DNA from: Klebsiella phage RCIP0102
Length of the DNA: 64,000 bases
Sequence record: OR532896.1
Direction: 5' to 3' (one strand)
Under the pieces are notes generated by a model. The model searched no databases. It had not been told where the DNA came from and worked only from the letters and a program-made list of their open reading frames with translations. The translations under genes were made by a program, and so were the position numbers. Shown here in pieces: positions 35,894 through 36,306 of this stretch (positions are counted from its first letter, which is position 1; the number at the start of each line of letters is the position of its first letter).

Positions 35894-36003
35894 TGGTGAA
35901 GAATTACCTACGTCACTAGGTTGGCTGTTCTGTCCACTTAAGGCTTGCAGCAGGAACACCATGGCTTTTCACCATTGATCCTCTCACGACTGAGACATTC
36001 TTC
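35894..36003 (-). ncRNA. 110-nt tRNA-like stable RNA candidate (acceptor-like 7-bp closure gaagaat/attcttc + A + encoded CCA, no canonical T-arm)
   Basis: Packed between tRNA-Thr and tRNA-Leu with the spacing of the tRNAs; reminiscent of the T4 small stable RNAs in its tRNA cluster. Confidence 0.4.
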
Positions 36004-36009
36004 ATAATT

Positions 36010-36094
36010 TGGTGCACCGAGAGGGATTCGAACCCTCAATCCTTGCGGCGTAGCATTTTAAGTGCTATGTGTATACCAGTTCCACCATCGATGC
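36010..36094 (-). tRNA. tRNA-Leu (UAA), class II
   Basis: 85 nt; acceptor gcatcga/tcggtgc, anticodon stem tagca/tgcta loop cttaaaa, long variable arm, T gaggg-ttcgaat-ccctc, CCA. Confidence 0.85.
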
Positions 36095-36098
36095 GAAA

Positions 36099-36175
36099 TG
36101 GTCGAGGCAGAAGGATTCGAACCTTCGACCTGCGGATTAGAAGTCCGCTGCTCTATCCAGCTGAGCTATGCCCCG
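36099..36175 (-). tRNA. tRNA-Arg (UCU)
   Basis: 77 nt; D gctc-agctggata-gagc, anticodon gcgga-cttctaa-tccgc, T gaagg-ttcgaat-ccttc, CCA. Confidence 0.85.
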
Positions 36176-36178
36176 AGA

Positions 36179-36306
36179 TTGTTCAGGCAGGACTCGAACC
36201 TGCACGACTGATTCCGTCGGCGATTTACCACCATCGCCAGCATATGATGCAATATGCGAGCTCAAAAGGTGTCCGTCACCATGTCTACCGATTTCAACAC
36301 TGAACA
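36179..36306 (-). ncRNA. 128-nt tRNA-like RNA: canonical T-arm (gcagg-ttcgagt-cctgc) and 7-bp acceptor closure tgttcag/ctgaaca enclosing four extra hairpins
   Basis: 3' end abuts tRNA-Arg with a 3-nt spacer; internal hairpins ggtgacggacacc, gcatattgcatcatatgc, ggcgatggtggtaaatcgcc, cgacggaatcagtcg. Confidence 0.45.

Follow-up and report, generated by a model that had tools for sequence, protein, structure and literature searches.

Non-decoding RNAs in the tRNA operon of a T4-like Klebsiella phage: a five-helix RNA family and a tRNA-like body with exchangeable inserts

Locus organization

The tRNA gene cluster of Klebsiella phage RCIP0102 (OR532896.1) was analyzed within a stretch of 64,000 nucleotides (nt), referred to below as the window. 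Two elements among its tRNA genes, designated A and B, are the subject of this report. Element A is a member of a five-helix phage RNA family that is absent from Rfam 15 and occurs in at least four phage lineages. Element B, as judged from its sequence, is demonstrably a class-II tRNA body resembling tRNA-Leu in which a structured payload of 52 nt stands in place of the anticodon loop.

The locus is that of a T4-like Klebsiella phage, and the 851 bp surrounding both elements are 97-99.9% identical to Jiaodavirus-type phages (pzk-kv4, ATCCa). ARAGORN and Rfam together place 16 tRNAs in the window, all on the minus strand, and elements A and B are likewise encoded on this strand. In the order of transcription, an open reading frame (ORF) of the gp30.3 family is followed by B, tRNA-Arg(UCU), tRNA-Leu(UAA), A, tRNA-Thr(UGU) and a degenerate tRNA-like element of 80 nt (Table 1). 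The degenerate element has an oversized anticodon loop and is labelled tRNA-Gln-CTG or tRNA-Undet(NNN) in related phages. No sigma-70-type promoter or terminator was found between B, tRNA-Arg, tRNA-Leu, A and tRNA-Thr by a simple consensus scan, whose scope does not extend to phage-specific promoters. The uninterrupted stretch from B to tRNA-Thr is consistent with a single transcript.

In a search of 4227 Rfam families carried to E<=10, neither A nor B gave a match, and ARAGORN calls neither as a tRNA. Searches of the window and of six divergent A loci (see below) with Rfam 15, at gathering thresholds and at permissive E-values, returned just tRNAs and chance matches such as Plastid-ycf2 on an antisense tRNA, YrlA and microRNAs. 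A first-pass annotation of this DNA had pointed out two elements at these positions, with 7-bp terminal helices, a discriminator A and tRNA-like spacing, and had noted a textbook T arm in the 128-nt element and an encoded CCA in the 110-nt element. All of these features are present in the sequence.

Table 1. Coordinates of elements A and B, their structural parts and other features of the tRNA cluster
Feature	Position	Strand	Description
gp30.3-family ORF	36767..36318	-	Pfam PF08010
Element B, 128 nt	36306..36179	-	class-II tRNA body; a structured insert, payload type 1, replaces the anticodon loop
B acceptor 5' strand UGUUCAG	36300..36306	-	pairs with 36180-36186; invariant in type 1
B D-arm-like hairpin, loop AAAUCGGUAG	36281..36297	-	A14, A15, G18G19, A20a
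B anticodon-stem equivalent, 5' strand GGUGA	36276..36280	-	pairs with UCGCC 36219..36223
B insert (payload), 52 nt	36224..36275	-	replaces 7-nt anticodon loop; hairpin GCAUAU-UGCAUC-AUAUGC and segment GAUGGUGGUAAA
B anticodon-stem equivalent, 3' strand UCGCC	36219..36223	-	A-U to U-A in Karamvirus
B variable-arm hairpin GAC-GGAAUCA-GUC	36206..36218	-	Karamvirus GCA-AGAACA-UGC
B T arm GCAGG-UUCGAGU-CCUGC and acceptor 3' strand CUGAACA	36180..36203	-	stacked directly
B discriminator A (A73)	36179	-	from sequence
tRNA-Arg(UCU)	36099..36175	-	starts 3 nt past B; ARAGORN, Rfam
tRNA-Leu(UAA)	36010..36094	-	its CCA 6 nt upstream of A; ARAGORN, Rfam
Element A, 110 nt	36003..35894	-	five-helix RNA, R1 family member
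A P1 5' strand GAAGAAU	35997..36003	-	acceptor-like closing helix, pairs with 35898-35904
A P2 hairpin UCUCA-GUCG-UGAGA	35982..35995	-	5 of 5 pairs covary
A P3	35953..35981	-	GGAUCA/UGUUCC helix, U.U mismatch, GG bulge, 4-5 bp stem, loop UGARAAG
A P4	35924..35951	-	4-5 bp helix, internal loop CAAG / AC..AA, CC/GG stem, variable tip
A P5 hairpin ACCUA-GUGACG-UAGGU	35906..35921	-	4 of 5 pairs covary
A P1 3' strand AUUCUUC	35898..35904	-	partner of 35997..36003
A 3' tail ACCA	35894..35897	-	discriminator A and encoded CCA
tRNA-Thr(UGU)	35813..35888	-	5 nt downstream of A; ARAGORN, Rfam
Degenerate tRNA-like element, 80 nt	35808..35729	-	directly after tRNA-Thr; Rfam tRNA 20.5 bits, threshold 29
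rnaC homolog	38856..38712	-	nhmmer, alignment, fold; program-made ORFs overlap

A five-helix phage RNA family

Element A reads GAAGAAU...AUUCUUC-ACCA, which forms a 7-bp terminal helix (P1) followed by a discriminator A and an encoded CCA. A covariance model, R1, was built from a five-helix alignment of 13 distinct variants of this RNA. When these variants are aligned with the guidance of the model, 98% of the cells form base pairs, compared to 39-46% when pairing partners are slid, and double changes occur in 17 of the 33 pairs. The window copy scores 130 bits with R1 (E ~4e-37, which is a rough value because the model was quickly calibrated). Scores of 106-134 bits are found in Klebsiella, Pectobacterium, Kosakonia and Aeromonas phages of the Straboviridae, Schitoviridae and Ackermannviridae. 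Searches with blastn locate A in 112 phage records, including Klebsiella T4-like phages, Schitoviridae (P184, CB4, Kc283), Ackermannviridae (the KpS110 group) and Aeromonas T4-like phages (44RR, phage 25 and the phiAS4 group).

More distant members were sought with an exact pattern from the most conserved stretch (GGATNAANNGTGANAAGCNNTNGTNTTCC) and then scored with R1. Divergent copies from IMG/VR and metagenomes (loci L145/L187, L179, L180, L181, L183 and L184) score 38-58 bits, and a copy in the Vequintavirinae phage KB57 scores 52 bits. Most matches of the patterns GCCTTAANNGGACAGAAC and GGATNAANNGTGANAAGC were due to chance, and L145 was the sole real one. Because the collections were scanned with exact patterns, the true range of the family is certainly underestimated. 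An exact-pattern scan of one genome per species from 185,579 bacterial and archaeal species found no host-encoded counterpart of the core. The pattern does occur in 24 of these representative genomes, where all matches score at most 19 bits with R1 and share only its 20 nt, and they are therefore attributed to chance.

Among 20 distinct variants of A, compensatory changes are seen in 24 of the 33 pairs, and 97.2% of the cells pair, compared to 37-46% with slid partners. None of 500 shuffles reached the covariation score of this alignment. Since the alignments are fitted to R1 and many of the variants are close relatives, these counts overstate the number of independent events, but the covariation pattern is unambiguous despite this relatedness. 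The first-pass annotation had taken both elements for RNA genes other than tRNAs whose ends would serve for maturation of the tRNA type, and had expected their terminal complementarity to be conserved in related phages. Both proposals hold: there is covariation and no tRNA call, and compensatory changes affect all seven closing pairs of P1 in the 20 variants of A and five of seven acceptor pairs in one allelic type of B (type 2, see below).

Members of the family are defined by P3 followed by P4 with its conserved internal loop, inside a closing helix and with a variable hairpin on either side. All of these parts are present in the window copy, and its helices are backed by covariation. P1 is free in sequence. 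Its length is 7 bp in enterobacterial phages, 14 bp in those of Aeromonas and 6-10 bp in other members. The 3' tail reads ACCA, ACCU, ACCC or AUCA in enterobacterial variants and is missing from Aeromonas and environmental variants. In distant members the loop and length of P2 are unconstrained and the loop of P5 is unconserved. Conservation is highest in P3, which is close to invariant among the 20 variants, with four covarying pairs and pairing in 100% of cells. The internal loop of P4 is also conserved, and the helix of 4-5 bp beside it covaries. The tip of P4 is UUAAGU in cultured phages and a GNRA tetraloop (GAAA or GUAA) elsewhere, on a CC/GG stem that is kept or, in L181, replaced by CU/AG. 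Because P3 and P4 are conserved while the other helices vary, the module of approximately 75 nt that they form is presumably the functional part of A.

T-loop-like motifs often serve in tertiary docking. The P3 loop, U-G-A-R-A-A-G closed by a G-C pair, may fit the pattern of such motifs, and this by-eye reading offers a lead. Three other readings of parts of A were considered and set aside. A kissing interaction between the loops of P2 (GUC) and P5 (GAC), as a mimic of the D/T-loop contact, was dropped, both loops being unconserved in distant members. A GGA sponge of the CsrA type was rejected, as the GGA in P3 is base-paired. By eye, the consensus of the P4 internal loop does not fit a K-turn or a sarcin-ricin motif.

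The likeness of A to tRNA, which the first-pass annotation had stressed, turns out to be superficial. Only the 7-bp terminal stem and the ACCA are tRNA-like, and A lacks a T loop. It gives no match to RF00005 or tRNA-Sec at E<=10 and no ARAGORN call, even with introns allowed and scoring relaxed. Moreover, the conserved core also exists without tRNA-like ends and outside tRNA clusters. Each of the inspected copies in cultured phages (T4-like, Schitoviridae, Ackermannviridae) lies between two tRNA genes, which differ from copy to copy. The combination of a 7-bp P1, a discriminator A, ACC(A/U/C) and tRNA spacing is confined to enterobacterial lytic phages. The KB57 copy keeps the 7-bp P1 and the tRNA spacing and has the tail UGCA. 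A has moved between unrelated phage families that infect the same hosts, in which its copies are 86-91% identical by blastn; this movement is a circumstantial argument for a role in trans. Element A is best seen as a mobile phage non-coding RNA that has been given tRNA-like ends within the tRNA operon of enterobacterial lytic phages.

The slot between tRNA-Leu and tRNA-Thr is not always filled by A. In the close relative Klebsiella phage SmallBear_ER8 (L035, 992-1096) it is occupied by a different element of 96 nt, in which a bulged acceptor-like stem is combined with a single long arm and a canonical T arm (UAAGG-UUCGAAU-CCUUA). This element has the motif CCGGAAUAG in common with the type-2 payload of B.

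It is very unlikely that A and B are decaying tRNA pseudogenes or functionless processing spacers. Such decay could be suspected from the degenerate tRNA-like element close downstream (35808..35729), from the differing presence of the elements among close relatives and from the label 'tRNA-OTHER, pseudogene' that some pipelines attach to the sister allele of B. Against it, compensatory substitutions maintain every helix, the core of A is nearly invariant over at least four phage lineages and metagenomes, and the payloads of B keep 82-89% identity between genera and contain hairpins that covary. The chance that the region instead encodes small proteins is negligible. ORFs of 33 amino acids do overlap A, one of 56 amino acids overlaps B, and several GenBank records draw a coding sequence ('hypothetical protein') over one or the other. 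However, substitutions are pairwise-compensatory rather than codon-patterned, and insertions or deletions of 1-2 nt in P2, together with variable helix lengths, break the frame, such that no frame is conserved across the 20 variants of A. The annotated coding sequences also vary in frame and extent among records.

The surroundings of the environmental copies are diverse. No neighbouring gene is common to them, and their gene contexts contain no Pfam match except a weak one resembling PAPS reductase. This match comes from L145/L187, an uncultured phage with a GC content of ~59%, in which A lies between an upstream gene for a cI/LexA-like S24 repressor and several small ORFs. Beyond the small ORFs are a protein of 247 amino acids without a Pfam match and then the weakly PAPS-reductase-like protein. 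Rfam places one tRNA on the L145 contig, ~1.6 kb from the A copy. The locus looks like an accessory region of a temperate phage.

These contexts raise the question of whether A, and possibly the payloads of B, are ligand-binding aptamers that act like riboswitches in temperate phages and, in lytic phages, as highly expressed sponges for small molecules instead of protein decoys. We consider this rather unlikely. Invariant internal loops and bulges amid freely covarying helices are the type of conservation seen in aptamers, the P3 loop may be T-loop-like as described above, and in L183, L184 and L145 a ribosome binding site and start codon lie 15-50 nt downstream of the RNA. However, the genes downstream are mutually unrelated and lack Pfam matches, and the copies in L179 and KB57 have hairpins or terminators after them and resemble stand-alone RNAs. 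There is no evident expression platform, and Rfam searches of the window and the divergent loci matched no known riboswitch class.

A tRNA-like body with exchangeable payloads

Element B reads UGUUCAG...CUGAACA-A, with a 7-bp terminal helix and a discriminator A, and its CCA is not encoded. Read as a tRNA, its acceptor strand is followed by U8 and G9 and its variable hairpin by U48. The 7-bp acceptor stacks on a 5-bp T stem with the loop UUCGAGU, and a D arm with G18G19 and a 5-bp anticodon stem occupy their canonical positions. What is missing is a 7-nt loop with U33 and a definable anticodon, as well as an above-threshold tRNA score. When the 52-nt insert is exchanged for an arbitrary 7-nt loop, ARAGORN calls a class-II tRNA of 83 nt, while the intact RNA receives no default call. 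These results correct the first-pass annotation in two respects. It had stated that no anticodon helix survives in B, yet GGUGA/UCGCC closes the insert and contains an A-U to U-A change in Karamvirus. It had also described extra hairpins instead of a D arm, which is in fact retained as a D-arm-like hairpin with G18G19.

Class-II tRNA-Leu and B have in common a 7-bp acceptor, U8, A14/A15, G18G19-A20a, an extra hairpin before U48, a T arm and A73. They differ in that B has no 7-nt anticodon loop or anticodon, scores below the Rfam tRNA threshold and has a discriminator that varies in relatives. By eye, the D loop of B resembles that of bacterial tRNA-Leu, and a tRNA-Leu may be the ancestor of B. 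Comparison of the B body to 224 phage tRNAs revealed no close relative, and blastn against E. coli genomes returned nothing with this query, which is too short. The D stem has 2 Watson-Crick base pairs in payload type 1 and 3 bp, with covariation, in type 2.

Payload type 1, carried by the window copy, is found in 164 phage records, and type 2 in 107. The two types have their 5' ~25 nt and 3' ~27 nt in common, including a D-arm sequence that is identical or nearly so, and their middles are unrelated. Type-1 orthologs in Karamvirus are 82-84% identical to the Klebsiella sequence and contain compensatory pairs in the T-stem closing pair (G-C to A-U), the anticodon-stem equivalent noted above and the payload hairpin (A-U to G-C). 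Two more compensatory pairs are visible by eye in the variable hairpin, where GAC/GUC becomes GCA/UGC. This type-1 comparison covers two clades only.

The sister allele, type 2, combines the same scaffold with a middle of 49 nt. It is present in many near-identical Jiaodaviruses, Marfa-like phages and Kanagawavirus. Its payload contains a hairpin closed by ACCGG/CCGGU with the conserved loop UUGGUAC. Covariation affects 11 of 29 pairs (5/7 in the acceptor, 1/3 in the D stem, 2/5 in the T stem and three in the payload hairpin), and 97.5% of the cells pair, compared to 29-46% with slid partners. In Kosakonia phage 305 the acceptor stem (AUUUGU./.ACAAAU) differs wholly in sequence and keeps its pairing. 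A D-loop-like pentanucleotide, UGGUA, is found in both of the otherwise unrelated payloads (type 1, 36224-36275; type 2, L002 628-683). It is part of GAUGGUGGUAAA in type 1, where its placement in an apical loop is uncertain, and of the apical loop UUGGUAC on a covarying stem in type 2. By eye, the payloads bear no resemblance to CRISPR repeats or ToxI-like RNAs.

For type 1, RNAalifold prefers a different structure in which the D-arm segment pairs with CACC-UUUU-GAG in the payload. Since both payload types have the D-arm segment in common, the tRNA-like fold of this arm is the more likely one. The alternative may represent a second conformer of type-1 B.

The closing of the insert by a 5-bp anticodon-stem equivalent might suggest that B becomes a decoding tRNA once an intron of ~50 nt is spliced out, and both the intron mode of ARAGORN and some annotators do call tRNA-Ser, Thr, Phe, Pro or Tyr. 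This explanation is highly improbable. The calls disagree between variants of what is one RNA, with ARAGORN proposing the anticodons Tyr(gta), Phe(aaa), Ser(gga) and Pro(cgg), and simple excision yields no U33-NNN-R37 loop in either payload type. The insert is much too short for a group I intron, matches no Rfam intron and is itself conserved and structured. The first-pass annotation had likewise held that the 128-nt RNA is not a plain intron-bearing tRNA, as the inconsistent anticodons bear out. B-type genes are deposited in GenBank as tRNA-Ser(gga), tRNA-Thr, 'tRNA-OTHER pseudogene' or hypothetical protein or are left unannotated, and the first four of these labels amount to a recurrent annotation error.

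If the body of B is recognized as a tRNA-Leu, host leucyl-tRNA synthetase (LeuRS) might charge it, and the product would be a non-decoding aminoacyl-tRNA-like molecule that could act as a LeuRS sink, a leucine donor or a binder of EF-Tu. The identity elements of E. coli tRNA-Leu are A73, A14, A15-U48, G18G19, A20a and the D/T-loop interaction, whereas the anticodon and variable arm are not elements, and variants without the anticodon arm stay active (PMC9976931). The window copy of B has A73, U8, A14, A15 with U48, G18G19, A20a and an intact T loop. Leucylation is nevertheless improbable as an explanation of B. Most copies from Karamvirus and Kanagawavirus have C as the discriminator, phage 5N has U, and C73 abolishes leucylation of a minimal tRNA-Leu (PMC9976931), so charging should be abolished in the many relatives with C or U at position 73. 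The CCA of B is unencoded, and the D stem of type 1 has just two Watson-Crick pairs.

Upstream of B, a TATAAT without a -35 element lies 5 nt ahead of the first base (36312-36317, minus strand). Where the window has TATAAT, Karamvirus has AATAAATA, a sequence similar to the T4 late-promoter motif TATAAATA. From these motifs, B may be driven by its own phage-type promoter.

Relationship to T4 rnaC and rnaD and to other RNAs

Small stable RNAs from the tRNA region of T4 have been known since the 1970s. Two of them, species 1 and 2, are listed with unknown function (PMC3014915, PMC9697503), and RNAC and RNAD are northern-validated late RNAs (PMC9697503). The gene order in T4 is tRNA-Arg, rnaD (119 nt) and rnaC (139 nt). 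The T4 RNAs are small and stable, ~120-140 nt long, encoded in the tRNA region of a T4-type phage and co-processed with tRNAs, and A and B are probably alike in this. Like B, T4 rnaC combines an acceptor-like stem with a long arm, a hairpin and a T arm. It has no D arm, and the architecture of B is rnaC-like plus a D arm. Element A differs in having no T loop.

Orthology of A and B to rnaD and rnaC, respectively, would account for the common neighbourhood beside tRNA-Arg, the similar sizes, the same type of ends and the architecture that rnaC and B have in common, but it is scarcely credible. Neither A nor B matches the T4 group by blastn in distant mode, nhmmer with T4 rnaC matches neither of them in the window, and T4 rnaD has no match in the window by nhmmer and blastn-short. 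The R1 model scores at most 3 bits on the rnaC/rnaD strand with filters off. Instead, nhmmer with T4 rnaC matches 38836..38717 (E=0.0023), just after tRNA-Pro. The full segment (Table 1) aligns with rnaC, including the arm GUAAGCYGAGUAGCG...CGUUCRGAUAUG and a downstream CACTT, and folds in the same manner: an acceptor-like stem of 7 bp (CGGUAUG/CAUACCG) is combined with a long arm, a hairpin, a T arm and a terminal UCCA (-50.2 kcal/mol, z = -3.65). It is the window's true homolog of T4 rnaC (species 1). Furthermore, B and an rnaC-like RNA coexist in Kanagawavirus, where type-2 B of CIP9 and PEi20 comes directly after an rnaC-like 3' end (..GGCGUUCCGUA). The corresponding position reads differently in Kosakonia phage 305 (L189-L191 for the three phages, positions ~120-150).

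The first-pass annotation had likened A and B to species 1 and 2 and had suggested comparing them to rnaC and rnaD by covariance model. They are the same kind of RNA, and in this the likeness stands. The model comparison speaks against a relation of A to either RNA, and no homology is detectable by any of these methods. Together with the separate rnaC homolog, these results mean that the likeness is one of kind, not of descent.

Other RNAs with a tRNA-like part were also compared. The tRNA scaffold engineered by Ponchon and Dardel has the same architecture as B, in that acceptor, D and T arms are kept and a hairpin-closed insert takes the place of the anticodon stem-loop (PMC3753655). That scaffold is artificial, while B is natural, conserved and equipped with at least two alternative payloads. 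Like B, tmRNA and YrlA are non-decoding RNAs that join a tRNA-like domain (acceptor plus T arm) to a further functional module. Both are matured by tRNA enzymes, and YrlA is topologically permuted relative to B. A tmRNA can be rejected: ARAGORN finds none, the Rfam tmRNA match is a 17-nt T-arm fragment of 7.7 bits, the 3-70 pair of B is U-A instead of G3.U70, and there is no tag ORF. The YrlA family (RF02553) scores 23.1 bits against a gathering threshold of 69, on a match that spans the T arm of B and the D arm of tRNA-Arg, and was likewise rejected. Finally, GOLLD, ROOL and similar large RNAs are phage-carried structured RNAs of unknown function that are often found beside tRNA genes. They are 5-8 times larger than A and B and are present in Rfam, whereas the Rfam matches in the window are tRNAs only.

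Maturation and possible functions

At the level of comparative sequence data, A and B are demonstrably RNA genes under selection for structure, placed in a tRNA operon with tRNA spacing, and B can be seen to keep what processing enzymes read, namely the acceptor/T-stem stack and the D/T elbow nucleotides. The likely course of events begins with co-transcription of A and B with tRNA-Arg, tRNA-Leu and tRNA-Thr. Both RNAs would then be released by means of their tRNA-like ends, with RNase P cutting on the 5' side and with trimming or addition of CCA on the 3' side, and they would accumulate as stable small RNAs like T4 species 1 and 2 and the engineered tRNA scaffolds. In E. coli, scaffolds of the latter type, with acceptor, T and D arms and an insert at the anticodon position, undergo processing and are stable (PMC3753655). 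RNase P is reported to cleave folds other than tRNA if they bear a 3' RCCA (PMC12710915). More speculatively, the core of A and the payloads of B might be the working parts, as trans-acting binding modules for a host or phage protein or a small ligand, and might contribute to host takeover or counter-defence and not to translation.

That A and B are real RNAs matured together with the tRNAs is very probable. The fuller proposal, that they are genuine non-coding, non-decoding RNA genes of the phage tRNA operon that are matured by tRNA enzymes and act in trans, is on balance slightly favoured. Several observations weigh against it. Thermodynamic z-scores of -2.2 for A and -0.8 for B are weak taken alone. 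The discriminator of B is A, C or U in relatives, and its CCA is not encoded. Because A lacks a T loop, its cleavage by RNase P would depend on the 7-bp stem and 3' ACCA as the only handle. In Aeromonas copies the closing stem is 14 bp long and ACCA is absent, and five of the six distinct environmental copies have no ARAGORN tRNA nearby, from which it follows that tRNA-type maturation is not essential to the A family. The relatedness of the A variants, the restriction of the type-1 comparison to two clades and the RNAalifold alternative for type 1 count in the same direction. Within this proposal, the idea that A and B are decoys or sponges for a host factor is a conjecture and less likely than not.

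Circumstantial evidence gives these RNAs the flavour of accessory genes or of an arms race. The slots are polymorphic in near-identical genomes, as seen in the payload swap of B and the 96-nt T-arm element in place of A in SmallBear_ER8. Element A is mobile, and a T4-like phage adapting to a semi-permissive host acquired a convergent single-nucleotide polymorphism in rnaD (PMC12685909). A joint reading can be framed in these terms, although it is doubtful. The P3-P4 module of A could be a high-affinity aptamer or decoy (a counter-defence 'sponge') for a host immune signal or protein, and B could be a natural display system on which phages swap payloads of ~50 nt on a tRNA-Leu body in the course of an arms race. 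If this were true, RNAs of the T4 species-1/2 type would be given a function class, and A would be the earliest recognised representative of a widespread phage RNA family that moves horizontally.

As a kind, stable RNAs other than tRNAs are already known from T4-type tRNA clusters. What is new is the A family, for which the comparative support is unusually good, and the exchangeable-payload scaffold of B, and a literature search by core sequence strings and keywords found no earlier description of either. This locus shows such RNAs to be a wider and more modular phenomenon than the T4 pair implies. One phage tRNA cluster houses an rnaC homolog, a tRNA body with exchangeable payloads and an A-family RNA, and the A family has passed between four or more phage lineages and has entered contigs that resemble temperate phages. 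With a near-invariant core of 75 nt and freely covarying helices, A offers a clean target for pull-downs, ligand screens and structure work. B provides a natural precedent for the tRNA-scaffold trick of RNA biotechnology.

Other non-coding segments in the window

Further non-tRNA spacers are located within the tRNA cluster on the minus strand, at 39843-40072 (230 nt), 39606-39766 (160 nt) and 39353-39447 (95 nt). The spacers of 160 and 95 nt have terminal helices (GUUCUUGAAG/CUUCAAGAAC and AAUAUUCA/UGAAUAUU, respectively). None of the three has an Rfam match at E<=0.5, and they may be additional stable RNAs. On the same strand, downstream of a small ORF (35710..35537), a segment of ~225 nt without a convincing ORF (35310-35535) terminates in a GC-rich hairpin and a U run. 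This segment could be another non-coding RNA or a 3' untranslated region. It is mostly conserved in SmallBear_ER8 (L035, 1168 to >=1330), where it comes immediately after tRNA-Thr.

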